In this document: piece after piece, positions 2,941 through 48,600 of the stretch | Position numbering within the stretch: position 1 is the stretch's first letter | How the letters are laid out: each line of letters opens with the position of its first letter | DNA from: a virus | IMG/VR virus record: IMGVR_UViG_3300045988_160359 | Coordinates: 1 to 53,569 of that record | Reading direction: 5' to 3' (one strand) | DNA: 53,569 nt | Position numbers and translations under genes: made by a program | The notes under the pieces: generated by a model | Database searches by the model: none | Seen by the model: the letters and a program-made list of their open reading frames with translations, nothing else | What the model was told of the DNA's origin: nothing

Positions 2941-3096
2941 TTGGCAAATGAGAATAATACAGTTAAAATCAGTGTTAGACTGACACAAACTGAGAAAGAT
3001 GAATTACAAAATTTTGCCCAAGCGCAGGATTTAACAATGTCTCAGGTTATACGCAAGGCATTGAAAGAGTATATGAATAAAACAGACAGAATCTAA
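2941..3096 (+). CDS. Ribbon-helix-helix (Arc/CopG/omega-like) DNA-binding protein, ~51 aa, TTG start
   Basis: The translation ...VKISVRLTQTEKDELQNFAQAQDLTMSQVIRKALKEYM has the typical RHH beta-strand plus two helices. The TTG start lies 6 nt after GAGAGGTGA. It is below the ORF-track cutoff. Confidence 0.5.
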   Translation: MANENNTVKISVRLTQTEKDELQNFAQAQDLTMSQVIRKALKEYMNKTDRI

Positions 3097-3111: not shown

Positions 3112-3330
3112 ATGCTAAATACTAATAAAAGAAAAATTATATACTCATTAAGAGTATATGTAGGGCTTAAAGAACGAGGGTTTATCCCTATTGCAACAAC
3201 AGAAAATCCTACCAAACCTAATTTTATGTGTTGGATATTTGAACGGTCAGATGAGTTTGATGATGCATTAAAAGAACTTATGCCTGAATGTAAAAATTAT
3301 AAGTCAGGTGGTGAAAAGTCTAATGGCTGA
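3112..3330 (+). CDS. Hypothetical 72-aa protein
   Basis: ATG preceded by AAGGAG. The stop overlaps the start of the next gene as ATGGCTGA. Confidence 0.45.
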   Translation: MLNTNKRKIIYSLRVYVGLKERGFIPIATTENPTKPNFMCWIFERSDEFDDALKELMPECKNYKSGGEKSNG

Positions 3331-3766
3331 TGTTGAAAAACGTTTTGTATTTTATGGAGAATGGTTAAACAATATTAAATCATTAGATTAGGCCACTTAG
3401 GATAAGGTTATTGCTGATATTGTGCGTTATGGCACTAATGAAGATATGTTTTATAGTGATGACCCTGTGGTATCAACTATTGTTAATTTTACCAAAGGGG
3501 CAATTGACCATTCAAAAGATGAATATTTAAAAAAGGTTATGGCAGGTAAAACAAATGGTAGAAAGAAATCTGTTGATGATGATTAGATATTAAAACTTGC
3601 GAGAGAAGGTAAAACCGCGAGTTAGATTGCGGAATTATTGAATTTGAGTGTGAGTTCAGTGAATCATAGCGAGGGATGGAAGCGTCGTAAAGAATCAGTT
3701 GCTGAAAAATCAGTCGTTGAAGAATCGGTGCTTGAATAGAAAAAACCAGTTGAGTTTATATTTTAA
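3323..3766 (+). CDS. DNA-binding protein with a C-terminal resolvase-type HTH; needs read-through of 5 in-frame TAG codons
   Basis: When TAG is read as sense, the single frame gives ...GRKKSVDDD-x-ILKLAREGKTAS-x-IAELLNLSVSSV. Gln fits the HTH consensus at TAS-Q-IAELL. Under the standard code the ORF is only 21 aa long. Confidence 0.5.
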
Positions 3767-3950
3767 TTGCAAATTTGCAAAAATGTTTTTGCAAATTAAT
3801 TGCAATGCAATGCAAAAATGTTTTGCAAATTTTGCAAGTTTGATTGCAACTTGTTGCAATTGCAAATTGCATTATATAATATATATTTTTGCAAAAAAAT
3901 TGCAAAGTTTTTGCAAATTGCAAAAACTTATTTGCAATTTTATTTGACAA
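3766..3950. repeat. Dense array of about 15 copies of the palindromic hexamer TTGCAA, mostly as TTTGCAAA or ATTGCAAT
   Basis: Directly visible in the sequence, for example ttgcaaatttgcaaaaatgtttttgcaaattaattgcaatgcaatgcaaaa...ttgcaattgcaaattgca. Confidence 0.7.
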
Positions 3951-4807: not shown

Positions 4808-4961
4808 TTAACAAGGTTAATATTGTGGCATTTGATTTATATATAAAATTATTATATAATATTTATATATAAGAATAGGAGGTGCCATTTTTGAAATTTC
4901 ATTTGAAAAATGGGGTATAAATAGACATTTTGAAAAATGAAATGAAAAAATGAAATGAAAA

Positions 4962-5345
4962 ATGAAAAATGAATTTACTTATGATGAATTGAAAAATAAA
5001 TACAGTAAAAGAGTTGGAAATTATAAAGGCAGAGATGTAATTGTACGCTCTAAATATGATGATTTGGGCGATAATGTATATATTTTATATGATTATAACA
5101 ATGCCCTTATTGTTGATGGCTATTGGATTGCGACTATCAGTGAAGATGGTAGTTTAAATCATAGAAGAGCAACACCCTGGATTAAGATGGATCGAGCCTC
5201 GCCGGCGGGCAGGCCACTAACGTGTCCTGAAAGTGATTCGGGTGGCGAGAATGATATTAGTCTTGATGTTGACTCAACTCTCGTTGATTCTCTCTTGGAA
5301 TCGGCGTATAATGATATTTTGAGCGATTTGATGTATAAAGAATAA
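4962..5345 (+). CDS. Hypothetical protein (127 aa)
   Basis: Intact ORF preceded by an ATGAAA repeat leader. Confidence 0.45.
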   Translation: MKNEFTYDELKNKYSKRVGNYKGRDVIVRSKYDDLGDNVYILYDYNNALIVDGYWIATISEDGSLNHRRATPWIKMDRASPAGRPLTCPESDSGGENDISLDVDSTLVDSLLESAYNDILSDLMYKE

Positions 5346-18928: not shown

Positions 18929-19044
18929 AATGACCTCCTTTAATTGATGGTATAAGTATAGCATACCTACTGGGCGTTGTCAACCGTCAAATTGCACAAA
19001 TTTCGGGATAAAAAATTGTTGAAAATACCGAACACAAAATGCTT

Positions 19045-19190
19045 GACAAATTGGCTGGGCTGTGGTATAATGGAATTTCCGGCCGCAACAGTCGTGGGCG
19101 GCTGGCCAAATTATACCATAGAAATGCTATTTTGTCAATAGGCAAAATGCACAAAAAAATGAGCCAAAATTTGGCTCATTTTATAATTCC
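19045..19190. promoter_or_regulatory. Convergent-promoter / hairpin / terminator module
   Basis: TTGACA-N17-TATAAT on both strands. Hairpin ccggccgcaacagtcgtgggcggctgg. Terminator gagccaaaatttggctc. Confidence 0.55.
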
Positions 19191-19284
19191 TATTCCGATA
19201 AGACAGAGGTACAGAAGAACACCACCGAAACCGAAAAATACAATCAGTCCCATAAACCACTGCCACAATCTTTCGTGTTTCATA

Positions 19285-19470
19285 TTATCTCAGCCCCCTA
19301 AAATCAACCACTTTGCCGTCTACCATCTCATGCCAGTAGAGCTTATCATTGTAGCGGATAGCCCGCACGCGGTAGTTGTGATTATCCCATGTGGTGTATT
19401 CTTTGTCGATTACATACTCGCCATAGCGGAGAACAGAATTGATAAATGTGTTGGTAAATGTCTGTTTCAT
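19285..19470 (-). CDS. Hypothetical small protein (61 aa)
   Basis: Intact ORF. Confidence 0.45.
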   Translation of the reverse strand: MKQTFTNTFINSVLRYGEYVIDKEYTTWDNHNYRVRAIRYNDKLYWHEMVDGKVVDFRGLR

Positions 19471-19480
19471 ATTCGCGCCC

Positions 19481-19702
19481 TCACATTCCGCGGACTGCGC
19501 CGCACTCGCTCATACCGTTTTCATCAAAGCGGGCGATAGGCTCGCCGTTCATCTCGCGGAGTTCAGCCCACGCTTCACCAAAGCCGCCATCAGCCAGCAT
19601 CAGCCGCACCAGCTCACACGCCGTTTCAAACTTGTTCCACGCGGCTTCATCACCGCTCACGCGCACGACTTCAACATTATTGACTACCACACTGTATTCC
19701 AT
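19481..19702 (-). CDS. Hypothetical small protein
   Basis: The start is placed at MEYSVVVNN after GAGGGAGG. Confidence 0.4.
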   Translation of the reverse strand: MEYSVVVNNVEVVRVSGDEAAWNKFETACELVRLMLADGGFGEAWAELREMNGEPIARFDENGMSECGAVRGM

Positions 19703-19783
19703 CTTGAATACCTCCCTCATTTGATAATACAATTATAGCACGCTTATTTATATTTGTCAATAGAAAAAATGAAAAAATCCGAA

Positions 19784-20062
19784 TTAGCTTCGGATTTTTT
19801 CAACGGTGATGATATTGGAATTGTCCCAGTTATAAGACACGGAGAACTGCTCATATAGACCATATATAAACCGCGTCCAGCCTTTGGTGCAGAACTCTCT
19901 CTGCCAATATCTTTCCAGAGGGCGCAGCTCCCACTGGATATACAACTGTTCTTCAAGGAAATCGCATATACTGGTGTCGGTGTCCCACTGGGCAGTAGCA
20001 GTTTCGCTATACTGCGCCTCGCTGTCGATGAACCTAATCTTGTACTCACGTGTCATACTCAT
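19784..20062 (-). CDS. Hypothetical small protein
   Basis: The start is placed at MSMTREYK after AGAGGAGG. Confidence 0.4.
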   Translation of the reverse strand: MSMTREYKIRFIDSEAQYSETATAQWDTDTSICDFLEEQLYIQWELRPLERYWQREFCTKGWTRFIYGLYEQFSVSYNWDNSNIITVEKIRS

Positions 20063-20174
20063 GACCTCCTCTGTTTTATGTATACAGTATAGCACAGGGG
20101 TGCGTGAATGTCAATAGTCAAAATGCACAAATTTCGGGATTTGGAATGTATAATTTTTGTTCATAATGCCTATT

Positions 20175-20290
20175 GACAAAATTGTTGGGACATGGTATAA
20201 TGGTAAATTTCGCGCGCCAGGGCCGTGGGCGCGCGACCGAGTATAGCACAAATGGGGCGCGTTGTCAACAGGCAAAATGACCAAAATTTT
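20175..20290. promoter_or_regulatory. Convergent-promoter / hairpin module
   Basis: Plus strand TTGACA-N17-TATAAT. Minus strand TTGACA-N17-TATACT. Hairpin tcgcgcgccagggccgtgggcgcgcga. Confidence 0.55.
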
Positions 20291-20346
20291 CAATCGAATT
20301 ATGGGCATAATGCCATATATAAAAAACAAGGGCTTTCGCCCTTGTC

Positions 20347-20538
20347 TTAGTAGCCCCTCTTTTCCAGTCTTTCCAGCCGGTCGGCGAGGGAACGCGCCAG
20401 CAGAACTTTTTTCCATTTCATAAGCTCGGCTTTGTTGCCCTCGGTGTTCGCCCAGATGCCCCAGGTGATGCCCTCGTTGATGATTTCCGCTTTCTTCATG
20501 CCCATCAGGTTTTCGAGATACTGTTCAAAGTTTGTCAT
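20347..20538 (-). CDS. Hypothetical small protein (63 aa)
   Basis: Intact ORF. Confidence 0.45.
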   Translation of the reverse strand: MTNFEQYLENLMGMKKAEIINEGITWGIWANTEGNKAELMKWKKVLLARSLADRLERLEKRGY

Positions 20539-20635
20539 AGCGTTTAGCTCCTCTCTTTTGATGGTTTAATTATAGCAAGTTAAACGCAGTTTGTCAATAG
20601 TTTTTTCAAAAAAAATAAAAAAAATAGTCGAGGGA

Positions 20636-20800
20636 TTAACCCTCGACTACTGCGACAACCTCGCCGTTCATACACGCGTGAACGTCGAACTCAACGCCTT
20701 TCCAGCTATCGCTGTAAAGGTACGTCCAGTCATCGCCCAGCACATAGGGCAGAGGCTTTACAGGGAGCACGCCGTCGGGAGTCTTTACAGTAGTCATCAT
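20636..20800 (-). CDS. Hypothetical small protein
   Basis: The start is placed at MMTTVKTP after GAAGGAGG. Confidence 0.35.
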   Translation of the reverse strand: MMTTVKTPDGVLPVKPLPYVLGDDWTYLYSDSWKGVEFDVHACMNGEVVAVVEG

Positions 20801-21106
20801 AGTCTTGCGACCTCCTTCATTTGATGGTTTAATTATAGCACCGTAGGTACATTTTGTCAAGCCCTTTTTCAAGAAATTTCAAAAATTTCTTCGTAGCCAT
20901 CATCCCATACCTGCCGGCATTTAGTGTTATCTTCATTAGCGTATTCGTCATAGCCAAAGCCCATGGACTCAACACGTCCTACAAAAATCCATTCCATTTA
21001 ATTATCTCCTTCCTTTTATCTGTTTGTATTATAATACAAAGGAGGGCTTTTGTCAATACTTTTTTCAAAATTTTTTCAAAAAAAAATAGGGCTTCCGCCC
21101 TATTTT

Positions 21107-21415
21107 TTAGCAGTAGGCAAGCGTCATAGTCGCCCATTTCAGCACGGAAATTTGATTACACGCTTTGCCGATTTCCATAGCTTCACGCTTTGTCGCCACG
21201 CGCTTGCTCCGGTCAACGAACCAAATTCCCCCACTATACCACACGCCACAATTTCCGCCGTAGTCTCTCACCGCGTCAATGGCTTCCTGTGCGGTCTTAC
21301 ATTCGATGCCCTCTGTGGCAACCTGCCAGCCGGATTTATAGTTTACCTTTTTGCCCATTTTGAGGGTCAGCCCGTCATTGTTGCCCAGCTTGCGGATAGA
21401 ACGAATGTTAATCAT
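21107..21415 (-). CDS. Hypothetical protein (102 aa)
   Basis: Intact ORF. Confidence 0.5.
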   Translation of the reverse strand: MINIRSIRKLGNNDGLTLKMGKKVNYKSGWQVATEGIECKTAQEAIDAVRDYGGNCGVWYSGGIWFVDRSKRVATKREAMEIGKACNQISVLKWATMTLAYC

Positions 21416-21534
21416 GTTGTGTATCTCCTTTGTTGTTTTGTTGTACTCATTATAACACGCCTATTTCGTTTTGTCTATTGGCAAACTATACAAATCGGGA
21501 TTGCGAATTTTGTGCGAAATTTTCGCATTTTTCT

Positions 21535-21640
21535 CTTGACAACTGGTGGGCTGCTGTGGTATAATATTTCGGGGCGCCACGTGCTTGATGAGCGCGACGA
21601 TGCTCGTTAAAATTTTAACAATCCAACAGCAAAAAATAAA
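21535..21640. promoter_or_regulatory. Promoter / hairpin module, followed by one TTTTAACAATC iteron
   Basis: Plus strand TTGACA-N18-TATAAT. The hairpin is cggggcgccacgtgc.... aaaattttaacaatcc lies at about 21613. Confidence 0.45.
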
Positions 21641-21646
21641 GGACGC

Positions 21647-21835
21647 TTATTCAGCGTCCCATTGAGTGATTTCTTCAAGGGTCAGCCCATAGAACTCAAC
21701 AGCTTCTGCCAGCTCCGCGGCTTCTTCCTCTGCGCCATAGCTTGTCCAATAGGCGTCCAGTAAGTTGATGATTTTCTCATAGGCTTCATCGGAAAGAGTA
21801 TCAATGATGTTGGAAACCTCGAATGTGTTTTTCAT
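21647..21835 (-). CDS. Hypothetical small acidic protein (62 aa)
   Basis: Intact ORF. Confidence 0.45.
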   Translation of the reverse strand: MKNTFEVSNIIDTLSDEAYEKIINLLDAYWTSYGAEEEAAELAEAVEFYGLTLEEITQWDAE

Positions 21836-22180
21836 TTTATGTACCTCATTTCTTAATTTCTGTATTCATTATAACACGCTTATTTGTGTTTGTCAATAGT
21901 TTTTTCAAAAAAAATAAAAAAAATAACAGGGCTTTTGCCCTGTTATACTGTGGGGATAAAACTCACAACCTTGCCGTGCTTGCGTTCCTCGACTTTGCGC
22001 TCCTGTGCGCTCAGACCGTAGAACCATGCCTGTGTGCCGTCCGCGAATTTGTACCAACCCTGTGTGCTTTTTTTCATTTTTGTGTACCTCATTTCTTAAT
22101 TTCTGTATTTAGTATAACACCTATTTCGGGATTTGTCAATAGTTTTTTCAAAAATAAACAGGGCTTTCGCCCTGTTTATT

Positions 22181-22369
22181 TTATTTAATTTTCAGAATTT
22201 CCTTGCCCAGCTTGCCGGACTTGAATACACGGCGGACGCTCACGATGTTGGCTTTTCGCAAAAACCCTATTGCGATGTTGTGGGCTTCGTTGCCCGTGCG
22301 GGCGATGATGGAAAGCGTCTGCCCCTCGGCGTTGATGCAGATGTAGGTATTAGCGATAGTGCGTGTCAT
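22181..22369 (-). CDS. Hypothetical small protein
   Basis: The start is placed at MTRTIANT after AAGGAGG. Confidence 0.4.
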   Translation of the reverse strand: MTRTIANTYICINAEGQTLSIIARTGNEAHNIAIGFLRKANIVSVRRVFKSGKLGKEILKIK

Positions 22370-22382
22370 AATTACTTCCTCC

Positions 22383-22619
22383 TTAATACATTTCCTCAGA
22401 CTGAGCAAGATAGAAATGGTCAATCTTGGTCAAGTCCAGCAGTTCGTACTTTTCCACACCCTCAGCAAGCAGGGCGTTCAGCTTGTCCACCAGCTCCGTA
22501 CCATTGTCCTTGCGTGCCTGAACGAACAGAAAGTCAGAACAGGTTTTCTCCCACTGTGTCCCTCTGTTGTAAACAACAGGCTCTTTCGTGGTGTAGCAGA
22601 CTCCATAGATGTTAGACAT
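22383..22619 (-). CDS. Hypothetical small protein
   Basis: The start is placed at MSNIYGV after AAAGGAGG. Confidence 0.4.
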   Translation of the reverse strand: MSNIYGVCYTTKEPVVYNRGTQWEKTCSDFLFVQARKDNGTELVDKLNALLAEGVEKYELLDLTKIDHFYLAQSEEMY

Positions 22620-22691
22620 TGTATCGTCCTCCTTTGTTTTACTGTAATCATTGTAGCACACATAGGGCAATTTGTCAAGAGGTTTTTTCAA

Positions 22692-23520
22692 AAATAACCT
22701 ACTTATTTTCGGGACAGAGATTGTGATTATTTTAACAATCGGATTTGCGATTTTTTTTCTTTAACACTTTAATGTAGTGAAGTCTGGGGCGTTGCGACCG
22801 TGTTCGGCATCCAACAGTGAATGTGAAATTTTTAACAATTAAACAGCGACTTCACCACATCCACACATTGTGAATTTTTTAACAATCTTGCTCGGTCAGC
22901 GAATGTATCAACTGTGCCGTGTGTATCCTGCTTGCTACCTGTGCAAGCGCACTCTTTACTCTCTTGCTCTTGGCTCTCACATTGTTAAACTTTTAACAAT
23001 CTTGCTCGCCCCTCTGTGAGGACTGTACGTTGCGGGATGCGCGCCGTTCAGCGCCCGCACTGCTGTGTTGTTTGGCAATTGTGCGAGGGCTTATTCTTGG
23101 GCGATTAGGGCCGTTAACGATGATGAACCTAAAAGAGAAATGGAATACTTACATTAGATTTGTTGGTGCGCGGTTCCCGGTGAGCCGACCGGTGGGAAGC
23201 GCGGTCTATTCTCTTATTGTTGGTCTATTCTCCTCCACCATCTACTACCCATAGCTCACCCTCTATCTCATACCCTACCATACCATACTACTATACTACA
23301 TTGTTAATACATTAACAATGTATCTATCATTGTGTTGTGTTGTGTGTTGTTCTCTTTGTCTGTTGGTCGTTCGCTCGTTGGCTCGCTCTGCCTTGTCCAC
23401 TGTGCCGTGCGTGTCCTTGTCCTCTTTTGGTTGAGTGATTGTTAAATCTTTCACAATCTTACTACATTATTAATCTTTTAACAATCTTACTACATCGTTA
23501 AATTTTTAACAATCTTAGGG
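22692..23520. repeat. Non-coding region with at least 7 TTTTAACAATCTT iterons, a 26-bp palindrome and a CA-rich to GT-rich switch
   Basis: Iterons lie at ~22735, 22843, 22884, 22990 and three tandem copies at 23440-23510. Palindrome tacattgttaa-taca-ttaacaatgta at ~23280. It is flanked on the left by ccataccatactactatactac and on the right by tgtgttgtgttgtgtgttg. Confidence 0.6.
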
Positions 23521-23536
23521 CAACAAAAAAACCTCC

Positions 23537-23632
23537 CTCAGTGAGGGAGGCAGATGAGGCACATCAAGATGCCAGTGCCCGCGACAACAGCGACCGCGGT
23601 GATGAAGCGCACGACTTTGTAGATGATAGACA
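23537..23632 (-). CDS. 31-aa hydrophobic peptide
   Basis: MSIIYKVVRFITAVAVVAGTGILMCLICLPH after AAAGGAGG. The cctccctcactgagggagg hairpin plus T-run follows. Confidence 0.3.
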
Positions 23633-24063
23633 TAGACCATTCCTCCTTTGATGATACTATTATACCAGATTTCAGGATGCGTGTCTATTGACAGAATACA
23701 CAAATTTGCAAGAGATTTTTTGTGGAGTTTGTATTTATTGCGAATGAGGACCGCGACAGCCATTCGCGGTCCTGCGAGTTGAGGGGTTGTATTGGGGATG
23801 GTCTAGTCTTTCCGCGTGCGCCAAGCCCAAGAAGGTCTCGATAGTGTTCAGATTTTTTCTCAGATAAAAACCGACCGGGGGGGGTGGGTTTCGGGAAAAA
23901 ATTTTTTTTGCTTTTTATTTTTTTGTTTGGCTGGTACAAACTCTCACCAAAACTTTTTTCAATTCAAATAACGGTAAAAAGAATTACTTTTTAATTTTAT
24001 TTCTACCAAAAAACCAAATAGGAAAAAATAAAATTAATCCTATCAATGCTAATGCTTCAAGAA

Positions 24064-24207
24064 TCATTTCTTATTCTCCTTCTTAGGGCGACCACGTTTA
24101 GGGTTTTCGCCCCATACAATTTGATGAACTGCTTTAGTAGCATAATAATTAGCTTTTTTCTGCATTTTAGCAGCGAGGGCATTTCCAAAACTTTTATATT
24201 TAGGCAT
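24064..24207 (-). CDS. Small basic protein (47 aa)
   Basis: MPKYKSFGNALAAKMQKKANYYATKAVHQIVWGENPKRGRPKKENKK. Confidence 0.35.
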   Translation of the reverse strand: MPKYKSFGNALAAKMQKKANYYATKAVHQIVWGENPKRGRPKKENKK

Positions 24208-25334: not shown

Positions 25335-25733
25335 TTACATAGGCTCCCAAAAATATTCACCATCCTTATATTTATTTACTCGAACATTGTGGACTAATAC
25401 TCTTATAGAGCCGTCTTCTTCTAATTGATTGGCGTATCCAGGCGGTGGCGGGCCCTTGGACAAAACTGAATAAGCGATTATATTAGAATTTTCATAATTA
25501 GAGAAGTCTGTAATTTTTGCGGATTCTTTCGCATTAAATTGGAGATGTAATAGCAAACAACAAGGAAAACTTTCTTCAATATTATTTGCGTCTTCATAAT
25601 AATCTGCTATTAAATTATATTTTTGTTCAATGTTTTCAGGGTCAAGAAGTTTAGCGACTCCTTTTGTAAACAATATATTATATATAATAGATAATATTAA
25701 TAATATACTTAATATAATAATAGCAATTACCAT
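25335..25733 (-). CDS. Membrane-anchored protein (132 aa)
   Basis: N-terminal TM segment. The RBS is AAAAGGAG. Confidence 0.45.
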   Translation of the reverse strand: MVIAIIILSILLILSIIYNILFTKGVAKLLDPENIEQKYNLIADYYEDANNIEESFPCCLLLHLQFNAKESAKITDFSNYENSNIIAYSVLSKGPPPPGYANQLEEDGSIRVLVHNVRVNKYKDGEYFWEPM

Positions 25734-27008: not shown

Positions 27009-28205
27009 ATGACTGTAGATAATGATAAAAAAGTATATTATTGCGAACGATGTAATAGAACTATGGGCGCTGACCAGTTTTATACATCTAATAATTTAGA
27101 AAAATATCCAAATGATGGAAAACTCCCTCAATGTAAAAAATGTATTACAATGCTTGTAGATAATTGGAATCCAGAAACTTATATGTGGATTCTACAAGAA
27201 ATTGATGTACCTTATGTTCCAGATGAGTGGAGTAAATTAATGGTAAAATATGGACAAGATAAATCTAAATTAACTGGTATGAGTATTTTAGGTAGATATT
27301 TGTCCAAAATGAAACTTAAACAATATAGAGATTATCGATGGAAAAATTCTGAGTTTTTATAGGAAGTGGCTAATAATAAATTAGAACAAACTATGAAACG
27401 ACAAGGCTATGATGCCCAGCAAATAGCAACAGCTATTGCTAAATCTACTGTCGCTATCCCAGAAGAAGAATTAAAACCTTACACTCCTGAATTACCAGAA
27501 CGTTTTAGAGATGGTGATGATTATTTTGATCAATAGAATGGTATTGAATATGATCCAGCAGATGACCTCGATTTAACAGAAGAAGATATTTTATATCTTC
27601 GTATGAAGTGGGGTAAAGCGTATAAACCCGAAGAATGGGTTAAACTAGAGCAACTCTATGAAGAAATGATGAGTTCTTATGATATCCGCGGCGCTGGCCA
27701 TATTGATACATTAAAATTAATTTGTAAGACATCCTTAAAAGCAAACTAGTTGATCGATATTGGTGATATCGAAGGTTTCCAAAAGATGAGCAAGGTTTAT
27801 GATAGTCTAATGAAATCAGGTAATTTCACCGCCGCTCAAAACAAAGCAGATACAGGAGAAGCATTTGATTCTATTGGAGAATTAGTGGCCATGTGTGAAA
27901 CTGAAGGATTTATTCCTCGGTATTATATGGAGGGACCAAAAGATAAAGTTGATGAAACTTTACAAGATTTAAAGAATTATACACACACATTAGTCACTGA
28001 AGAGATGAATCTAGGTAATCTCATTGAAGGGGCTATTAAGAAAATGCAAGAAGAAGAAAATAAAGAAGAAGACCAAGATATTGAAGAAGATTTAACGATG
28101 GAAGAAATCGATCATCTTAAAGATGAAGATTTAATTGAATATAATGATTTCCTTGAGGAAGAGTCTGAAATAGATGCTTAGACTTTAAGGAATTTAGAAG
28201 GATAA
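27009..28205 (+). CDS. Putative terminase small subunit (N-terminal CxxC...CxxC zinc ribbon, acidic C-terminus; 3 in-frame TAG)
   Basis: The call rests on its position directly upstream of terL. Track ORFs 27009..27362 and 27750..28181 share one frame. Confidence 0.35.
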
Positions 28206-28206
28206 T

Positions 28207-29940
28207 ATGGCTTTATAGGATTTACTTGATTTATCTTAGAAGCGTAAAAAGATTGGAATTTCAGAGGACCGTCTTCGTGCGATTATACCAGAAGCAAGAT
28301 AGTACATAGCCTTTTGGAGAGAATATCCAGATATGTTTATCGACTTCATGGCAGGACCTGATGGCGGCCCTCAACATTTTAAACTCTATTTTTATTAGAG
28401 AATCTTTTTGCGCGCTGCGATGCGTCATAAATATATTTATGCTGTATTCCCTCGTGCTTATTCAAAATCTTTTTTATCAATGATGGTCTTAATGTGTCGT
28501 GCGATTCTATATCCTAGATGTAAATTATTTATTACTTCTGGTGGTAAAGAACAAGCGGCTGGAATTGTAAAAGAAAAAGTTCAAGAAATTTGTACTCTTA
28601 TTCCTGCATTTTAGAAAGAAATAGATTGGCGTCGTGGTTAGACACTTGAAGGTAAGGATTATGTTAAATATGTATTTAAAAATGGTTCATATTTTGATAA
28701 TATTGCTGCAAGAGAATCTTCTCGTGGTAAACGTCGCCATGGTGGTTTAATTGAAGAGTGTGTTGGCGTTGATGGTGATATTTTATCACAAGTTATTATT
28801 CCTACAATGAATATTTCTCGTATGTGTATGGATGGTACTACTCAACCTGATGAAACTCTTAATAAATCTCAAATTTATATTACTACTGCTGGATATAAAA
28901 ATACTTTCCCCTATGATAAATTAATCCAATTATTAGTTTGGGAGATTGTTAAACCTTAGCAATCTATTATTATGGGTGGTACTTATCGTATTCCTGTTTT
29001 AATGAAATTGTTAGATGCGAATTTTATTAAAGACTTAAAAATGGACGGAACGTTCAATGAAAGTTCATTTGACCGAGAGTATGAAAGTAAATGGTCTGGC
29101 ACAGTAGAAGATGCATTTTTTAATGCTGAAATATTTGATAGAAATAGAATATTAAATTAGCCTGAATATGAAGCATCCGGGCGTAATTCAAAATTAGCAT
29201 CTTATGTACTTGCTGTCGACGTTGGCCGTAAAGGATGCGATTCAGTTATTTGTGTATTTAAAGTAACTCCACAATCACAAGGTGGTTCAATTAAAAGTTT
29301 AGTAAATATATATACATTATCTGATGAACATTTTGAAGACCAAACTATTAAATTAAAAAAATTATATTATAAATATAATGCTGATAGAATTGTAATTGAT
29401 GGTAATGGTTTAGGAATTGGTTTAATTGATTATATGGTTAAGACATAGATTGACCCTGAAACTAATGAAATTTTCCCTGATTTTGGCGTTGTTAATGATG
29501 ATGATTTATTTTATAAAAAATATAAAACATCTAATACAGTATTAGATGCTATGTATATTATAAAAGCTAATGCGCCACTTAATACTGAAGCTCATGCGAT
29601 TGCCAAATCACAACTTGCTTCTGGAAAAGTGAAATTTTTAATTGATGAGCGCGTAGCAAAAAATAAACTTCTTGCTAAAAAGAAAGGTCAAACCATGACT
29701 CCAGAATAGAGGGCAGAAGAATTAAAACCATTTACATTAACTTCCATATTAAAAGAAGAAATGATGAATTTGCGTGAAGAAACTGAAGGAGTAAATATTA
29801 TCCTGAAGCAAGCAAATAAAAGTATCCGAAAAGATAAATTTTCTGCTTTTGAATATGGACTATATTATTTAAAATTAGAAGAAGATAAAAAGAAGAAACG
29901 TAAAAAGTTTAATGCTAAAGATTGGTGTTTCTTAAATTAA
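28207..29940 (+). CDS. terL: Terminase large subunit (~577 aa) with about 10 in-frame TAG codons
   Basis: Walker-A-like VFPRAYSKSFL. Nuclease-domain motifs LAVDVGRKGCDSV and IVIDGNGLGIGLIDYM. Track ORFs 28408.. and 28972.. lie in the same frame and are separated only by TAGs. Confidence 0.75.
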
Positions 29941-30307: not shown

Positions 30308-30319
30308 GGAGGTGGAATT

Positions 30320-31981
30320 TTGGATACTAAAGAATTATCACGTTAGGAAATCATCCACTCCAAAGGATTTAATATCAGCAATGGAACAAGTGATTATCGA
30401 ACTGCTGATCCAACAGAATATCGTAAGATAAAAGTTGGGGTTCAAACATTAGATGATGCTGTATTAGATTTAGGGTCATTCGCTCGATTATATCCTAATC
30501 GCCGCGGTCCATGTCGTATGGTTACTAAAAATGATGTATTACGAGCTATGATAAATCGTGATATTGTTGAAATGCGTAGAATTTCTAATTTATTTTATGA
30601 TATTAGCGGTATTTATGAGCGAGTATGTAATTATTTTGCTTATTTGTATAGATATGATTGGTATGTTGCTCCAGAGATTTTAGATGATACAGTAAAAGAT
30701 GAAAAAGTTTTAAAAGATTTTTCAAAGTTATTAAATTACTTAGATAATACTTATATTAAAAAAATCTGCGGTGATATTGCTCAAAGTATTATGAAAAATG
30801 GTTGTTATTATGGATATATAGTACAATCTGCAAATAGCTTAATGTTACAAGAATTACCTGCTAGTTATTGCCGCTCTAGATACTTTGTGGCTGGTATGCC
30901 AGCGATTGAGTTTGACATGCGGTTTTTTGATTAGTTTCCAGATCCTAATTATCGTATGCGCGTATTAAAATTATTCCCCGAAGAATTTTAGCGCGGATAT
31001 GTTTTATATAAGAAAGGAAAATTACTTCCTGATATTAAGGGAGATTATAGTGGAAGTTGGTATTTACTATCTCCAGAATTAAGTGTAAAATTTAATTTTA
31101 ATGGTAGTGATGCCCCGCCATTTATTAATTCTATTCCTGCTCTTATGGATTTAGATGCTGCTCAAGATTTAGACCGCAGAAAACAAATGTAGAAGTTGTT
31201 AAAAATTATTGTTCAAAAACTTCCAATGGATAAAAATGGCGATTTAATATTTGATATTGATGAATCTCGTGATATACATAATAATGCTGTTGCTATGTTA
31301 TCAAGAGCTATTGGTGTTGATGTTTTAACAACATTTACTGATGTTCAATCTATTGATTTATCAGATAAAAATACTACAACTACTACAGATGATTTAGCAA
31401 AAGTTGAACGTACTGTTTATAATAATTTAGGTATTTCTCAAAATCTATTTAATACTGATGGTAATTTATCATTAGAGAAGTCTATCCTTAATGATGAATC
31501 AACTGTTAGAAACTTGTTGTTGCAATTTAACATTTTTTTTGATAGAATAGTAAAGATGAAAGTTGCGAACAATAAGAAATATAGTTTTAAATTTTATATG
31601 CTTGAAACTACACAATATAATTATAAAGAAATGTCAAAATTATATAAAGAACAGACGCAACTTGGTTATTCTAAGATGCTACCTCAAATTGCTCTTGGTC
31701 ACTCTTAGAGTTTTATTTTAAATACTGCGGTATTTGAAAATGATGTGTTGAAATTAACTGAAATTATGATCCCACCATTAATGTCTTCTACTATGAGTAG
31801 TCAAGATGTTTTGGGTAATAAAGGTTCAAACAATTAGAATAAAACACAAAATAATTCAGGAAGTAGTAATCAATAGACTACTACAAAACAGACTACTGAA
31901 ACAAAATAGTCTGGGCGACCTGAAAAGGCTGATGATTAGAAAAGTGAAAAAACCATAAAAAATAAAGAGTCAATGAATTAA
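30320..31981 (+). CDS. Putative portal protein (~553 aa) with about 8 in-frame TAG codons
   Basis: TTG start 7 nt after AAGGAGGTG. Track ORFs 30518.. and 31196.. lie in one frame. The call rests on size and the terL-portal gene order. Confidence 0.5.
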
Positions 31982-42663: not shown

Positions 42664-42693
42664 TTTATATTATGAGAGAAAGGAGTCCCGTTT

Positions 42694-45600
42694 ATGGCAA
42701 AACAACTAAATGTCGCATTAGATTTTACTGCAAATACTACTCAAGCGAAATAGCAGATTTAGGAATTGCAGTAGTTATTAACTAAAGTAGCATATAGTAC
42801 TGACTTAGGTATTAATCCCAGTCAAATGAAAGAAGCTTCTGCTGCGGCTAAAGAATTAGCTATTCATTTAAATGAAGCGTATAATTAGAAAACTGGTAAT
42901 TATGATTTAAGTAAATTAAATGCTAGTTTAGCTAAATCAAAAACTAATGTGACTGAATTATCTACCAGCTTACTCCAAGCGGGAACAACTGGACAACAAG
43001 CATTTATAAAATTAGCTCAATCAATAGCGGCGGCTGATTAGCCAATGATTACATTAAATGCTCGTTTATAGGATTTTTTGACTACTGTTAAGAATACAGT
43101 TAAATGGCAAATTTCTTCAAGTATGATTCATGGGGTAATGGGAGCTTTGCAAGGAGCTTATCGTTATGCTTAGAATTTAAACAGTTCATTAAATGATATT
43201 CGAATTGTTACTGGTCATAATATTGACTATATGGATAAATTTGCTGATAAAGCAAATAAAGCAGCAAAGGCATTAAGCACTTCTACATTAAATTATACTG
43301 ACGCTTCTTTGATTTACTATCAACAGGGTTTGTCAGACAAAGAAGTAGAAGATAGAACTGCTGTTACTATTAAAATGGCTAATGCTGCTGGTGAAAGCGC
43401 AGATAAAATATCAGATCAATTAACTGCTGTTTGGAATAACTTCTATGATGGGTCACAATCATTAGAATATTATGCCGATGTTATGACTGCATTAGGTGCA
43501 GCGACAGCTTCCAGCACAGATGAAATTGCGGCTGGATTAGAAAAATTTGCGGCCGTGTCTAACACAGTAGGCTTAAGTTATGAGTATGCTACTTCTGCTT
43601 TAGCAACTGTAACAGCAACAACTCGTCAATCTGCTGATGTAGTTGGTACTGCATTTAAAACATTATTTGCTCGTATTCAAGATTTAGAATTAGGGAAAAC
43701 TCTTGAAGATGGTACTACATTAGGAAAATATTCTCAAGCTCTTGATACTGTTGGCATTTCTATTAAAACAACAGATGGCGGATTGCGAGAAATGGATGAT
43801 ATCCTTAGTGATTTAGGTGAAAAATGGAATTCATTTGATGTTGAAGGTAATCCATTAATTTCTAAAGATGCTAAAGTAGCATTAGCTCAAACTGTTGCTG
43901 GTGTTCGTCAATATACGCAATTAATGGCATTAATGGATAATTGGGATTTTATGAAAGAAAATCTCGAAACTGCTCGTAATGCTACTGGTACATTAACTGA
44001 ACAATAGAAAATTTATGAAGAATCTTGGTAGGCTGCTAATAAACGTTTAAAAGCTTCTTTTGAATCTTTATATACTGATTTAATTGATGATAAATTTTTT
44101 ATTAAATTTACAGATTTTTTATCTGATATGGTTGATGGTGTTGATTCTTTTATTGATAAAATTGGTGGAATTAAACCTTTATTATTAGGATTTTTATCAT
44201 TAATTGGTTAGACATTAAGTTCTAAAATTTAGCCGGCTTTAGATAATGCAATAAATAATATTCAAATTTTAGTAGGTGGAGCAGATAAAGTTTATGCTAA
44301 AATATCTAAAGAAACTTCTGATAATATTAAACTATAGTTAGAAGCAAGAACTAATTTTACTCCAGCTCAAGAATAGGAATTAAAAAATTCTTAGGAATTA
44401 TTAGGAGTAAAAAATAAATTAGCAACAGTGTCTGAAAATTTATCTGTTAGTGAAAAAAGATATTATGAAAATGAAATTCAATTTATTGAAAAACAATAGT
44501 AGGAAACAGTAAAATTAATTAAATTACGAGAACAATTAAATAAAGATACTAATCCTATTGATTTAAATGCTCCTAATCAAATTTATGATTATGGTACTAG
44601 TTATTTACAGAAGTTAAAAGCTAATAAAGATAAAGTTTAGTAGTTATATCGTAATAATCCATCTGAAAGTAATTAGGCAGATTTAGTCGCTGCTAGAAAT
44701 GATTTAGCTTTTTTTTAGAATGATAAATTAGATATTCAGGAACAGGCGGCATCTCAGTTAGCACAAACAGTTGAAAAATTAACAAATGCTTATAAAACTT
44801 TTATTGAAGTTGGACATGAAACAAATGAAACTTTACTATCAGGAAATGATTTATACTCTTTAACAATTGAAGGACTTAAAAAATTAGGAACTTAGTATAC
44901 TAAATTAAATGGTGAAATTGATTTTGAAACGGTTCGAACTTCTATTGATATGCTTATTGGTCCAGTAGATGAAGTCACAAAATCTTCAAAAGATTTTCAA
45001 AATGCTTTAGAAGCTATTGAAAGTGCATTAGATGGAGGAAAGCCGAAAGAAGTAAGTTAGGCTTTTAAGCAGTTAGCAGAAGTTCTAAAAAATACTACTA
45101 TTGAAGGAAAAAATGCGGCTAATGCTTTAGAACAAATGGGTCGTTCAACAAGCAAATCAATGAAATAGGCTAAAGGTGATATTTAGGCGCATGGTAAAGC
45201 ATTAAAATAGTGGGGATAGGCTACTAAAGAAGCAAAAGAGGCACAAGAAGGACTTAATCAAGCAGTTATTAATTTTAAACCAGTTCATAAAATACCTTTC
45301 ACTTAGAGCGTAATATCATTGGCTTCTGCTTGTGGTTCTGCTGCGATGACATTGCAATCATTTAATTCTATGATGCAAACATTATCTGATCCTGATATTT
45401 CTGGATGGGAAAAATTTACATCTGTTTTATTTAGTATTTCTATGATTGTCCCTGGGGTGTCTAGTGTTTTACGAGGATTAAGTACTACTAATGCCTTTTT
45501 ACAACAATAGTCTTAGAAACAATTTCTTACACTTTCTTTAGAAAATGTAGCGATAGAGGCTAATACAATAATATTAACTTAGAATCAAAAAAAGAAAATA

Positions 45601-48600
45601 GATAATATATTAGCTAGTAAAAAATTAAATGATGCTTTTAAAAAGAATGCTATACAAGCAGTTTTAGCTGCAGGAGGAGTGGTTACTGAAACTACAGCGT
45701 TGCAAGCTGAAGCTATTGTAGCAGGAAAGGCGACGGTAACAACTAATGCTTTTTCTACAGCTTTAAAAGGTTTATGGTTAAATATTGCTCCAGTTTTAGC
45801 CACTATTTGGCCTTTAATTGTAGCTTTAGGAGCTTTAGTAGCGGCTTGGACGATATATAACAATGCTACTGGGGCAGCAGCTGAAAACGCGGAATAGAAT
45901 AATAAAAATTTAGAAGAAACTAAAACTGCTTTAGATGATGTAAATAGTAGATTAAATACATTAAATAGTACTTTATCTGGGCTAAATGATAAACGTAAAA
46001 ATATTGACAATCTCACTTATGGAACTATAGAATGGCGAGATGCTGTTAATGAGTTAAATGATGAAGTTGATGACTTAATTGAAAAATATGGTTTAATAAA
46101 AGGATAGGACTGGGATATTGATGCTCAAGGGCGTAAGTATATTACAGACACTGGCGCGGAGACTATGCGTACTTCAATGGATGAAGAACGTTCTAATTTA
46201 TTATCAGCAAAAGCTGCTCAATAGAAATTTAAAGATAAATATGAATACGATTAGAGAAAAAGAGAAATTATTTCTGATTATACTAAACGCGGATAGACCC
46301 ATTATGATAATGATGTAGAATAGATTACTTCTAAAGATCTAGACACTATTATTAATGCTAAATTACGTAATCCAAACTTAGAAATTGATTCTGATGCATT
46401 AAAAGATTTAGGCTTAGATTAGAGTGTTATTGATTTAATTGATAATAATACTGAATTACAAGATGCTATTAAAGAATTGACTATATAGGCACAACGAATT
46501 GCTGACACAGAAACTAATGATATGTATAATAAAATGGTTTCTGAAGGGATTTTAGAAGATTTAAAAGAGGCAGGAGTCAGTGATGAATATGCCTCTGATA
46601 TTGCTTATAAAATGGCTGAAGATGCAGCCCGTAATTCTAATGCTATAGATTATACTGACTAGTCTGCTACCGCTTTTAATGTTTTAAATAATTCAAATGA
46701 AAATATTCAAGAGTTTTTAAAAGAAAGAGGATATACTTATAAAGACAATAATTTTTGGGGTAATCTATCTAAATTATAGAATGATAAAACTATTGAAGTA
46801 TATACAGATGAAGATTAGAAAGAGACTAAAAATATTTCTGTTTCAGAATTACGAGCTTGGTTGGAAAATAAATTAGCAGCTGAAGATACTGTGGCTAATA
46901 TTGATGATTATGTAGGAATAGAAGCCGATAGTAAAACAACTTGGGAAAACGCTTTTAAAGCAAAAGAAACTTGGAATAAAAATCAATCAACTGTAAATGA
47001 ATTTGAACAAATAAATCAACAGGGGACTCCAAACGAAGATTCTTTTGATAATACAGAAGATTATCAAGCGGCTTATAATAATTATCAAGATTAGTTAAAA
47101 GAAAAAGCTCAAGCTATGTCAGATATGTTAAAATAGAATTCTGAAGAGTATGCTTCTATGTTTAATATAACTAAAGAAGGTTTCGAAGAATGGATTAGTG
47201 ATAGTGACAATATTATTGAACATTATGATTTAATTAAGAAAGCAGTTGAAGGAGACGCTGAAGCTGTAAATGAATTACGAAAATTAACTGGTCTTAATAT
47301 TGGTACTATTAAAGATATTTAGGATGCTTGGAATGATAACAGCAAAGAACTAGATAAATATATTGAAAAATTAGAAAAAAATCAAGATTTAACAGAAGCT
47401 GAATATGAATCTTTTGGAGATTTTTTAAATGCTAATTCTGATAGTTTTGCTTCTTTAGCAGCAGTGAGTGAAGATACATTTGATAAAATGTTATCTCATA
47501 ATAAAGATTTTATTAAAAAATCTGGTCCATTGATTCCTAAAATGATGAAAGGCGATACTAAAGCTGTTCAACAATTTAGAGTAGAAGCATAGCGTCAAAT
47601 TGTTTTAGATGTTAATAACACTAAAGCCCGTTCAGCAATGGCTCAATTAGAGGACTCTGCTGATGCTGCGGCTGGAACAGTTGAATCAGATGTTCAAAAT
47701 GCTTTTGATTATATTTCTAATTATATAGAAAACAATCCGATTGAAGTCGGAGCAGAAGTCAATGATGCTGGATTTATTGATGCTTGTAATAAAATAATTG
47801 CCGCTAGTGGATGGACATCTGAACAAGCACAAAAAGAATTTGCTAAAATGGGATTTAATTTAGAATTAAATCCAGTCACTCCTTAGGTTACTAAAAAACA
47901 TTATGAAGTATTAGAAGCTTCAGATGTCCCTGATGCTGTTGATTCAAACCATCATAAAAAAGGTGACCCTGAGGTAGTGTCTTATGAAGCTACCGATACT
48001 ATTGAATACCCCGCAGCAGTTAAGGCTGTAACTGGTGGCGGCTTAGAAATGGGCGGTGAAGTCACTGGAGGCACAAAACCTTCTGGAGCCACTGGAGGAA
48101 ATGGTAGCGGTGGTAGTAGTGGAGGTGGCGGTGGAAGCTCATATACTCCTCCTCCTCCAAAAGAATATAAAGATGAAATTGAGCGTTATCATGTAATTAA
48201 ACAAAAAATTGAAGATTTAGAAGAAGTAATGGAACATTTAGCAAAAGCTAAAGAGCGGGCATTTGGCACTTCTAAATTAGAATTAATGGATCAAGAAATT
48301 GAGAAATATGATGAAATGATTGATTTATAGAATCAATATCTTGATGAAATTAATAAATATTGGGATGAAGATAGAGCTTTAATTGCATCTTATGGCGCTG
48401 AATTTGATGAAACTGGTGCTATTACTAATTATGATGAAATTATGAAGCGCCAGATTGATAAATATAATTCATCTATTGGTAGAAATGAAGAGGCTGATGA
48501 TGCGGCTGAAGATGCTTATGATGATTTTATTAAAGCTTTAGAATAGTATGAAGAAACTAATAATTTACGCCAAGACGAATTGGAAAAATTATATGATTTA

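Follow-up and report, generated by a model that had tools for sequence, protein, structure and literature searches.

The question raised by this locus is what purpose a phage might have for a long stretch of early-region DNA that encodes no protein yet is full of repeats. The window analysed here (the whole stretch of 53,569 nt, part of a genome of at least ~100 kb, with related contigs measuring 97–201 kb) had been predicted to contain at this place a replication origin, or else a packaging or partition site, built of iterons and a palindrome at a switch in base composition. Our analyses rather point to a cis-regulatory operator array for a dimeric repressor, most probably the host redox sensor Rex, and not to an iteron origin; we would put the probability of this reading at about one half.

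An array of palindromic boxes in a gene-free region

The region indeed lacks a credible open reading frame, as originally stated: the longest one comprises 74 aa, begins with TTG and contains 1-nt and 4-nt indels in close relatives. The layout of the region and its surroundings is given in table 1. The at least seven 'direct' copies reported earlier are real as repeats, and each turns out to be the right half of a palindrome of 20 bp, ATTGT(T/G)AA-N4-TT(A/C)ACAAT, which is the actual repeat unit. The 13-mer TTTTAACAATCTT occurs exactly four times (at 22877, 22991, 23476 and 23504), twice more in the region with two mismatches (22730 and 23448) and once outside it (21613); taken alone, it is weakly enriched window-wide (15 matches versus 7.8 expected). 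Nine copies of the palindrome were recovered from the whole 53.6-kb window with a cut-off of at least 14 of 16 positions, versus 0.1 expected by chance, and their distribution is strongly skewed, all of them being confined to 1.9 kb (21603–23513). Eight of these boxes (R1–R8) lie inside the ORF-free region and one (R0) is an outlier. The 26-bp palindrome described previously is present and represents a perfect copy of the 20-bp box (R5). The three tandem copies are likewise found at the right end, where they directly follow the terminator when read in the minus direction, and they recur every 28 bp, not every ~30 bp (R6–R8; the best tandem repeat of the window, with a TRF score of 104). Because the T/G variation in one arm is uncompensated in the other, the boxes are DNA sites and not RNA hairpins.

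Table 1. Features of the gene-free region and its borders (coordinates refer to the window).
Feature	Position	Strand	Sequence or remark
R0, Rex-type box (outlier)	21603–21622		CTCGTTAAAATTTTAACAAT
Early promoter, left border	22650–22678	minus	TTGACA-17-TACAAT, extended -10; drives gene 22383–22619
ORF-free control region	22679–23530		852 bp, between minus-strand terminator and next minus-strand early promoter
R1, Rex-type box	22720–22739		ATTGTGATTATTTTAACAAT; centre at about position -86 relative to the start of early promoter 22678–22650
Second palindromic motif	22766–22785	plus	CACTTTAATGTAGTGAAGT; family ACTTTA-N6-T(A/G)AAGT
R2, Rex-type box	22820–22839		AATGTGAAATTTTTAACAAT
R3, Rex-type box	22867–22886		ATTGTGAATTTTTTAACAAT
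Highly conserved non-box block	22900–22980		93% invariant columns
R4, Rex-type box	22981–23000		ATTGTTAAACTTTTAACAAT; perfect consensus match
C/A/T-rich tract, nearly G-free	23205–23296	plus	least conserved part of the region (52% invariant columns; indels)
-10-like hexamer beside R5	23295–23290	minus	TATAGT
R5, Rex-type box, central perfect palindrome	23297–23322 (box 23300–23319)		TACATTGTTAA-TACA-TTAACAATGTA
-10-like hexamer beside R5	23325–23330	plus	TATCAT
G/T/C tract	23330–23433	plus	one A in 104 nt
R6, Rex-type box, tandem triple	23438–23457
R7, Rex-type box, tandem triple	23466–23485
R8, Rex-type box, tandem triple	23494–23513
Intrinsic terminator of small upstream gene, right border	23531–23551	minus

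The boxes match the operator of Rex

The core of the box is identical to the consensus of the Rex operator in Clostridia, TTGTTAANNNNTTAACAA (PMC9600882, PMC4600107). Scored against the Rex form TTGT(T/G)AA-N4-TT(A/C)ACAA, four of the nine boxes are perfect (with the known G/C variant allowed) and the other five have one mismatch. A logo built from 183 unique boxes from related loci reads S-A-TTGTTAA-AWWT-TTAACAA-T-S, with a spacer consensus A-W-W-T whose positions 8 and 13 are conserved at 96–97%; the deviations from the logo are mostly a G at half-site position 5 and, mirroring it, a C in the other arm, and they produce the general Rex half-site TTGTGAA/TTCACAA (the operator consensus of S. 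aureus is TTGTGAAW4TTCACAA; PMC2883068). The A following TGT(T/G)A and the T preceding T(A/C)ACA within the half-site mark the boxes as Rex-type and not as Crp/Fnr sites of the form TGTGA-N6-TCACA. Many boxes additionally share the flanks YAC... and ...CTTGCTCG, which Rex would not need.

Like the bacterial Rex operators (ROP; PMC2883068, PMC9600882), the phage boxes consist of the identical inverted repeat of 18 bp, in which the 4-bp spacer is rich in A/T, and they permit the same half-site variant. The bacterial sites precede fermentation or respiration genes, whereas the phage boxes are not located beside metabolic genes, and the phage array is much denser (8 boxes in 830 bp) than any of the host promoters described in the studies consulted. 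No Rex homologue was detected in the window or in ~1.7 Mb of related loci (with a query validated against PDB 1xcb), and only four contigs in IMG/VR encode Rex, none of them from the family of the window phage. Rex matches in the GenBank phage collection were rejected as phage genes, coming from short, unannotated, bacterial-looking contigs, and their sole use was to supply Rex sequences of gut Firmicutes. All cultured phages that are most closely related by TerL have Firmicute hosts, and the MAG bins are mostly Clostridia, the binning of phage contigs being unreliable; from both we infer a Firmicute host.

Conservation and placement of the boxes in related phages

Six close relatives share the region at ~89% nucleotide identity, with frameshifting indels. 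The box core is 94% invariant among them (π 0.022) versus 76% for the rest (π 0.093; Fisher p = 1.4e-6), and the 4-bp spacer varies like the background. Conserved half-sites around a drifting spacer are the footprint of a protein-binding site and, judging from these alignments, purifying selection acts on the half-sites but leaves the spacer free. The repeats are thus conserved in relatives, their sites being the most conserved positions of the region, and the part of the original prediction that described a conserved gene-free control region of repeated protein-binding sites is supported by the comparison.

Relatives (many such cases occur in L028, L083 and L007) carry boxes singly or in pairs at individual early promoters, either upstream or downstream of them. 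Around strong promoters, the boxes stay clear of the core and peak ~19–21 bp upstream of the -35 element, with a second peak 37–60 nt after the -10 element of convergent promoters. In the window, R0 lies 37 nt past the -10 element of a perfect plus-strand promoter (21536–21565), behind a GC-rich leader hairpin and facing the early genes, and this promoter–hairpin–box module recurs in L002–L005, L007, L012, L017, L093 and L109. Other boxes near promoters in the window are only R1 and R5, the latter at weak divergent promoter-like sites (9/12) in which a half-site, TTGTTA, stands 17–18 nt from a -10-like hexamer on each side; R5 with its flanks (23290–23345) is 97% invariant. The idea that half-sites double as -35 elements more generally was rejected, as the apparent peak at 17–18 nt came from counting the central palindrome redundantly in close relatives. 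In the clade of the window phage, most boxes are far from any strong promoter and the majority of strong early promoters lack one.

L013, L014 and L016 carry no boxes, although the late regions of these phages are 96–97% identical to that of the box-bearing L007 (97% for L013), and no neighbouring phage protein was found to track the presence of boxes. Boxes are also missing from the searched parts of Geobacillus phage E3 (its first 50 kb) and of Phass-1, a gut phage, so the feature is lineage-specific.

Replication origin, packaging and DNA entry

The iterons of the lambda origin are dyad-symmetric and bind the initiator. They and the iterons of plasmid oriV resemble the boxes in being closely spaced non-coding repeats with internal dyad symmetry, and one can envisage an origin in which the palindromes bind an initiator while the purine/pyrimidine-asymmetric flanks favour unwinding or R-loop priming. 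A three-site tandem array beside a compositionally extreme tract, in a conserved and ORF-free region, would suit such a role, and in phage phi29 boxes for the host protein Spo0A do occur at origins as well as at promoters (PMC2731898). We nevertheless consider an origin very unlikely. The region differs from the iteron systems in that no initiator or helicase-loader gene is located nearby, DnaA boxes show no enrichment and do not occur in it, and an AT-rich unwinding element is missing apart from the boxes themselves, the flanks having 45–62% GC. The same boxes are, moreover, scattered at the early promoters of relatives and dispensable in some of them. Better classical candidates exist at 3760–3950 (TTGCAA repeats) and in AT-rich tandem repeats at a GC boundary.

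The switch from CA-rich to GT-rich sequence that had been noted at the central palindrome is real in so far as the left tract is almost without G (GC skew -0.92) and the right one without A (AT skew -1.0; its A-free run 23330–23398, plus 34 further bases, is the longest of the window). It is not a mirror-type inflection, both flanks being pyrimidine-rich on the plus strand. The cumulative GC skew, a weak test when computed for the window and not for a whole genome, has its minimum not at 23300 but 2 kb off, at 25421, where it tracks a flip in gene orientation; the G-free tract causes a dip of only 30 units. We also considered the two flanks as arms of a hairpin and rejected this possibility, since neither as DNA nor as RNA do they fold better than shuffled sequences (z 0.15 and 0.01).

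Some resemblance can also be seen to the injection stop signal of phage T5 (bioRxiv 10.1101/866236). The T5 region, which carries eight DnaA boxes and borders the pre-early genes at their inner end, is like ours large, non-coding, rich in repeats and palindromes, endowed with a constant set of host-protein boxes, and conserved beside poorly conserved small early genes with strong promoters. It is situated in a terminal repeat, is tied to two-step DNA entry, and its boxes serve a different protein. The shared layout would agree with an analogous DNA-entry signal, and in L096 the box cluster is only ~340 bp upstream of the late/packaging operon; still, a function in entry, packaging (pac) or partition (parS) appears highly improbable. 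The boxes are scattered, near-identical relatives can do without them, and no Par gene or recognisable small terminase gene adjoins the region. A genome terminus near the region was considered and rejected: the contigs L008 and L010 end close by inside AT-rich tandem repeats, and the other contig ends are unrelated to these, so that they look like assembly breaks with no defined terminus. Among 40 proteins from the early region and the left end, we recognised no replication-initiator, Par or small terminase family (three late proteins among those scanned have no Pfam family, and the small terminase subunit could be among them); the nearest DNA-binding genes, coding for an RHH protein and a DUF6291-HTH protein, are 19 kb away.

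The placement of boxes on either side of early promoters, together with their absence from phages with 97% identical late regions, argues against both an origin and a packaging function. The functional part of the original prediction thus does not fit repeats that are palindromic and operator-type, are used at early promoters of relatives, are missing from near-identical phages, and have the sequence of the site of a host repressor, Rex.

Box type changes with the host lineage

Enterococcus phage H1 (OP534061.1), a cultured relative, has the same architecture as the window phage. Its 138-kb genome contains five Rex boxes of the Bacilli type (TTGTGAA) versus 0.07 expected, all located in two ORF-free gaps that are homologous to the gene-free region of the window, whereas boxes of the clostridial type (TTGTTAA) are not enriched (1 versus 0.2 expected). 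A Rex half-site, TTCACA, constitutes the -35 element of an 11/12 promoter in H1, an arrangement analogous to that of R5. The same gene-free zone of H1 contains four cre boxes for CcpA that match TGTAAGCGCTTACA at 13–14 of 14 positions (three exactly), with 0.00 expected; ArgR-like boxes are not enriched in H1. Exact LexA boxes of the Firmicute type, defined by a published consensus (PMC2248561), form arrays in other relatives (8 in L081, 16 in L083 and 5 in L057, versus 0.04, 0.21 and 0.16 expected). The Bacilli-type boxes of H1, combined with the LexA arrays, indicate that the type of box follows the host lineage.

Mycobacteriophage 'stoperators' are a known multi-site silencing system, and by analogy the boxes could be bound by a dimeric repressor encoded by the phage itself, with Rex-like specificity and a role in silencing early transcription or in superinfection immunity. 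The many intergenic early-region copies in some relatives (14 in L028, 19–24 in L083) would be in keeping with such a system, boxes past promoters would suit roadblocks, and the conservation of flanks extends beyond the Rex core; only a part of the genome of the window phage is seen, so the regulator could be encoded elsewhere. Nevertheless, we regard a phage-encoded repressor as unlikely: no DNA-binding family was recognised in 30 proteins of the early region of the window (searched with Pfam and, for ten of them, PHROGs), most early promoters there have no box, and the complete genome of H1 combines host-type Rex boxes with the absence of any rex or Rex-like gene. The switch of box type with the host lineage likewise speaks for a host protein, and, given the co-occurrence of exact LexA and CcpA boxes, several phage regulators would have to mimic host ones.

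A possible mode of action

Our best reading, in which the protein involved is host Rex, is that the array would couple phage transcription to the redox state of the host, as a variant of the known cases of Spo0A, CtrA and DnaA boxes. At a low NADH/NAD+ ratio in the host, Rex dimers would occupy the boxes. Rex bound at R5 would cover the -35 elements of the two weak divergent promoters, the tandem triple and R0 (downstream of a convergent promoter) may act as roadblocks, and boxes upstream of early promoters may tune the access of RNA polymerase. A rise in NADH would release Rex from the DNA. The region of the early/late switch would in this way be coupled to the metabolic state of the host, as in lytic deferment. 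Replicating phage DNA would also constitute a sink for Rex, since the good boxes of one genome amount to ~1/3 of the whole predicted host regulon, which comprises 27 sites (PMC9600882).

Such titration could even be the main function: hundreds of replicated copies of 8–9 high-affinity boxes would act as a DNA decoy that sequesters Rex and thereby derepresses host fermentation genes for the reoxidation of NADH. This idea accords with the concentration of boxes, in this clade, in a stretch that lacks ORFs and is distant from strong promoters, with their number (9 here and up to 24 in L083, versus the 27 sites of the host regulon) and with a tandem triple of 28-bp period that has no obvious promoter target. 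It seems distinctly improbable, however, as the fixed box positions by promoters in relatives and the box over the -35 element in H1 point to regulation in cis, we found no precedent in the literature, and titration is deduced from box numbers alone. If the decoy nevertheless operated, host metabolism would be reprogrammed by non-coding DNA and not by a protein, and the sister arrays for LexA and CcpA in relatives would likewise act on the SOS response and catabolite control.

Host-regulator boxes known from phages

Regulation of phage development by host-regulator boxes is known for a short list of signals: sporulation is wired in via Spo0A, the cell cycle via CtrA and DNA damage via LexA. 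If the boxes described here bind host Rex, redox or energy state would join this list, and a family of large Firmicute gut phages would sense the NADH/NAD+ ratio directly through their non-coding DNA. In phages with CtrA boxes, the sites occur at or close to promoters, as do the boxes of relatives of the window phage, and neither system requires the phage to encode the regulator itself. There the regulator is a cell-cycle protein whose binding and regulatory effect have been shown experimentally, whereas here it is predicted from sequence to be the Gram-positive NADH/NAD+ sensor Rex; a further difference is that the box changes with the host lineage (TTGTTAA versus TTGTGAA). Phages phi29 and Nf provide the other parallel, being lytic phages of Firmicutes with several operators for a host master regulator in their early/late promoter region; their Spo0A boxes suppress phage transcription once the host has entered a certain physiological state (PMC2731898). 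The 0A boxes of phi29 are few, only 7 bp long and overlap with known promoters and origins, whereas the present array consists of 8–9 palindromes of 20 bp, mostly off strong promoters, and phi29 senses sporulation, whereas the window phage would sense redox state.

Taken together, the change of box type with host lineage and the LexA and CcpA arrays in equivalent regions of relatives suggest a general design principle, in which the region of the early/late switch would serve as a hub for global regulators of the host. The type of box could then mark the host of uncultured phages. The family of the window phage comprises, besides the cultured Enterococcus phage H1, members in which the stop codon TAG is translated as an amino acid, and the idea is testable now, as H1 and its host are in culture. 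No tRNA or suppressor tRNA occurs in the window, and no DNA similarity to known phages or plasmids was found.

Other elements of the region

Apart from the boxes, the region contains a highly conserved block (table 1) that includes a hairpin, GCTTGC-N7-GCAAGC (22930–22948), and a 22-bp sequence (22908–22929) that recurs as a direct repeat at 23396–23417. A structured RNA in the GC-rich core was considered and rejected: no Rfam match was obtained at gathering or E-value thresholds, there is no promoter, and RNAalifold run on seven close relatives gave a slightly positive covariation term with 2–3 compensatory pairs on either strand. The second palindromic motif, CACTTTAATGTAGTGAAGT, is probably an operator for another regulator; motifs of the same family occur in many copies beside Rex-type boxes in L028 and L089. 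A further palindrome, TGTCTAGACA, is present in L028, and the literature points to a GntR-type operator in its case.

The repeats match the Rex operator

The stretch at the upstream end of the early block, from the terminator at 23551-23531 to the promoter at 22678-22650, had been proposed to be an iteron-type replication origin, or else a packaging or partition site. It indeed has no credible ORF, the longest one carrying frameshifting indels in relatives. The 13-mer direct repeats are present as four exact copies and three with two mismatches (the one at 21613 included), but their unit was misjudged: a repeat search lines up seven copies as in-register 31-mers, each internally dyad-symmetric. 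The tandem trio likewise exists, with a period of 28 bp rather than ~30 bp, as does the 26-bp palindrome (23297-23322). Scanning the window for ATTGTTAA-N4-TTAACAAT yields an array of nine copies at 14/16 positions or better, against 0.1 in shuffled sequences, and since this one scan matches both the palindrome and the "iterons", the former is simply the perfect member of the latter family. G-bearing left half-sites (ATTGTGAA) combine with A-bearing right half-sites (TTAACAAT), and such uncompensated variation indicates DNA sites for a dimeric protein rather than RNA hairpins.

The core of these boxes is identical to the clostridial consensus operator of Rex, the bacterial NADH/NAD+-sensing repressor, TTGTTAA-N4-TTAACAA (PMC9600882, PMC4600107); the form known from S. 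aureus is TTGTGAA-W4-TTCACAA (PMC2883068). A logo built from 183 unique boxes shows, as the most frequent deviations, a G and a C which turn the clostridial form into the general one. The A and T just within the half-sites are 96-97% conserved, which fits Rex but not Crp/Fnr-type sites (TGTGA-N6-TCACA). Where it could be tested, the phages lack rex: Thermus Rex (verified against PDB 1xcb) had no homologue in the window itself or among the related loci fetched, and a gut Firmicute Rex profile recovered only four Rex-encoding contigs from IMG/VR, none of the window's phage family. None of the neighbouring early genes was recognised by Pfam or PHROGs as coding for a DNA-binding protein, and Rex boxes in phages did not come up in our literature searches.

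The flanks of the central palindrome do differ in composition, the left tract being nearly devoid of G and the right one of A, but both are pyrimidine-rich on the plus strand, and the supposed switch is not a mirror-type inversion of strand asymmetry. The two tracts do not pair together, which rules them out as hairpin arms. The right-hand tract contains by far the longest A-free stretch of the window (the next longest run is 41 nt); neither of its strands can hold stop codons or a consensus -10 element.

Conservation and distribution of the boxes

Searches with the first late protein gave 80 related loci in IMG/VR and 27 in genome bins. In six loci with 98-99% protein identity, the entire non-coding region is preserved at ~89% nucleotide identity. 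The repeats, whose lack of conservation was to count against the original prediction, carry a clear footprint of selection: half-site positions are 94% invariant among these six (π 0.022) as opposed to 76% elsewhere (π 0.093; Fisher p = 1.4e-6), the 4-bp spacers evolving like the background. Strong conservation also extends over the block 22900-22980 and around the central palindrome, and the CA-rich tract varies most, with 52% of its positions invariant. What more distant relatives have in common with the region is limited to the boxes and a second palindrome; the latter usually adjoins Rex-type boxes and reaches more than ten copies in locus L028 and four in L089. Further palindromes were noted, GATGTCTAGACATC (GntR-type in appearance) in L028 and AGTTAGTTATAACTAACT-like ones in L089 and L096.

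Other viral contigs likewise have box clusters (10 in 650 bp in L081, nine in L089, 13 in L093, and seven in L096, where the first late gene is just ~340 bp away), and in L028 and L083 the boxes are dispersed across the early region (14 and 19-24 copies). None was found in the parts examined of Geobacillus E3 and Phass-1. Three boxes are present in L007, but L013, L014 and L016 lack them despite sharing 96-97% identity with it in the late region; box-bearing cassettes have been swapped out or lost as a 130-bp indel. This absence from near-identical phages speaks against a packaging signal or an essential origin, and the boxes behave as accessory cis-regulatory elements.

Boxes matching those of other host regulators

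The closest cultured relatives by large terminase all infect Firmicutes. Enterococcus phage H1 (52.6% TerL identity) shares the layout of the window, including leftward small early genes (an exonuclease homologous to the window's, at 30%, and a similarly annotated HAD-type hydrolase) and an ORF-free gap of 980 bp ahead of the late operon; a second gap of ~800 bp lies inside the early region. In the complete genome of H1 (138 kb), all five Bacilli-type Rex boxes (0.07 expected) fall within these gaps; clostridial-type boxes are not in excess, and no rex gene was found. The -35 element of an 11/12 promoter facing the late operon is a half-site of one Rex box. The gaps also hold four cre (CcpA) boxes, TGTAAGCGCTTACA at 13-14/14 positions (three exact; 0.00 expected), and further repeated palindromes, e.g. 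ATAACAAGTGTTAT. Exact Firmicute LexA (Cheo) boxes, CGAAC-N4-GTTCG (PMC2248561), form arrays in L081, L083 and L057 (8, 16 and 5 against 0.04, 0.21 and 0.16 expected), interleaved with Rex-type boxes in the first two; the window has one, a chance level.

The type of Rex box thus covaries with host lineage and, judging by the motifs, three host global regulators are represented in equivalent phage regions. This favours host regulators over mimicking phage proteins, which would explain the pattern far less well as the putative binders.

Boxes, promoters and a possible mechanism

The window derives from a large tailed phage with a plus-strand structural and packaging module (25887-53569, ~30% GC) whose ORFs are long only with TAG as sense. 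Phage Phass-1, related by TerL, is classed in GenBank under "Caudoviricetes code 15 clade". The window yielded no tRNA. The minus-strand early block (about 5.5-24 kb, 45-50% GC) comprises dozens of small standard-code genes, each with its own terminator and a near-perfect TTGACA-17-TGnTATAAT promoter. At least ten perfect (12/12) sigma-70 promoters with extended -10 fall within 3.7 kb at 19000-22700, some of which lie on the plus strand and converge on the early genes. The set of early genes is highly mosaic, also between relatives whose late proteins are 98-99% identical.

Boxes avoid the core of strong sigma-70 promoters. One peak lies 19-21 bp upstream of the -35 element, adjoining an A/T-rich UP-like tract, and another, preceded by a GC-rich leader hairpin, 37-60 nt after the -10 element of promoters converging on early genes. 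The latter arrangement recurs as a mini-module, in which a perfect promoter facing against the early genes leads through a hairpin of 37-44 nt to a Rex-type box; the outlying box at 21603 belongs to one, and between L007 and L013 the module behaves as a ~130-bp indel. It may be a gated antisense transcript. Most boxes of the window's clade are not near strong promoters, and many share extended flanks.

At low NADH/NAD+, Rex dimers would sit on the boxes. Within the central box, TTGTTA stands as a -35-like element for each of two weak, divergent promoter-like sites (-10 TATAGT and TATCAT at 17-18 nt), and bound Rex would cover it. The triple array behind a terminator and the box behind a convergent promoter could act as roadblocks that NADH would free. 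With nine boxes per genome, compared with 27 predicted sites in a whole host regulon (PMC9600882), replicating phage DNA might also drain Rex.

A plus-strand transcript starting at the central palindrome would run antisense to a gene for a 31-aa hydrophobic peptide, which stands directly beside the array, has a strong promoter and is conserved in the close clade.

Known systems and the origin reading

The systems that come nearest are phage Delta, with an intergenic region dense in CtrA boxes (PMC9437464), phi29 with its Spo0A boxes (PMC2731898) and T5, whose injection stop region bears DnaA boxes (bioRxiv 10.1101/866236). The present array would follow the same logic with another regulator and another host signal. 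As the Spo0A boxes of phi29 lie at its origins (PMC2731898), host-regulator sites and an origin could coincide, yet nothing positively supports one here and we consider it improbable that the box region is or contains an origin. The window yielded no recognisable initiator or Par gene and no enrichment of DnaA boxes, and no AT-rich unwinding element adjoins the boxes beyond the boxes themselves. The cumulative GC-skew minimum, a weak indicator on a partial genome, maps to 25421, where transcription diverges. No terminase small subunit was identifiable in the window, the three late proteins tested having no Pfam match. No DNA-binding genes were found there other than those for an RHH and a DUF6291-HTH protein, at 2.9-3.7 kb.

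More classical iteron-like DNA occurs elsewhere. At the GC boundary, the units form AT-rich tandem repeats of ~45 bp in relatives, and two contigs end inside them; the adjoining AT-hook-like protein is kept in many relatives (41-100% identity). The TTGCAA field is a more classical iteron, origin or partition candidate than the box region. Just before it (2941-3096 and about 3326-3740) lie RHH (CopG/NikA-like, DUF6290), weak, below-threshold DUF5659-like, and TAG-containing DUF6291 plus resolvase-type HTH genes. A short tandem repeat at 4931-4973 lies in a stretch of 23% GC with a strong positive GC skew.

Features of the window and of related phages (window coordinates unless a locus is named)
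Feature	Position	Strand	Remarks
Tandem repeat TGAAAAA / TGAAAAATGAAA	4931-4973		just upstream of ORF 4962-5345
TTGCAA/TTTGCAA field	3760-3950	both orientations	AT-rich, ~190 bp, roughly 18 copies
Promoter-hairpin-box mini-module	21536-21622; L003, L007, L012, L017, L093, L109		recurrent
Box starts	21603, 22720, 22820, 22867, 22981, 23300, 23438, 23466, 23494		ATTGTTAA-N4-TTAACAAT scan
Second palindrome	22766-22785		family ACTTTA-N6-T(A/G)AAGT
A-poor tract	23330-23433		104 nt, one A; A-free runs of 69 and 34
31-aa peptide gene (MSIIYKVVRFITAVAVVAGTGILMCLICLPH)	23538-23633	-	stand-alone; promoter 23687-23659, RBS, terminator 23551-23531
GC-boundary element (high/low GC)	23850-24060; L007 8780-8960; L081 1240-1400; starts of L008, L010		conserved; G-run (ccgaccggggggggtgggtttcggg), A/T runs, then ttttcaatt(t)caaat(t)ac units
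47-aa basic protein	24064-24207	-	AT-hook-like KRGRPKK motif; adjoins boundary element
TerL-like ORF	28189-29940	+	long only with TAG as sense
Portal-like ORF	30308-31981	+	long only with TAG as sense
Tape-measure protein	42676-50991	+	2771 aa with TAG read as sense
H1 ORF-free gaps	OP534061.1 90400-91550, 99700-100450 (L145-L148)		all five Rex boxes inside
LexA box arrays	L081 539-1157; L083 throughout; L057 1541-1846
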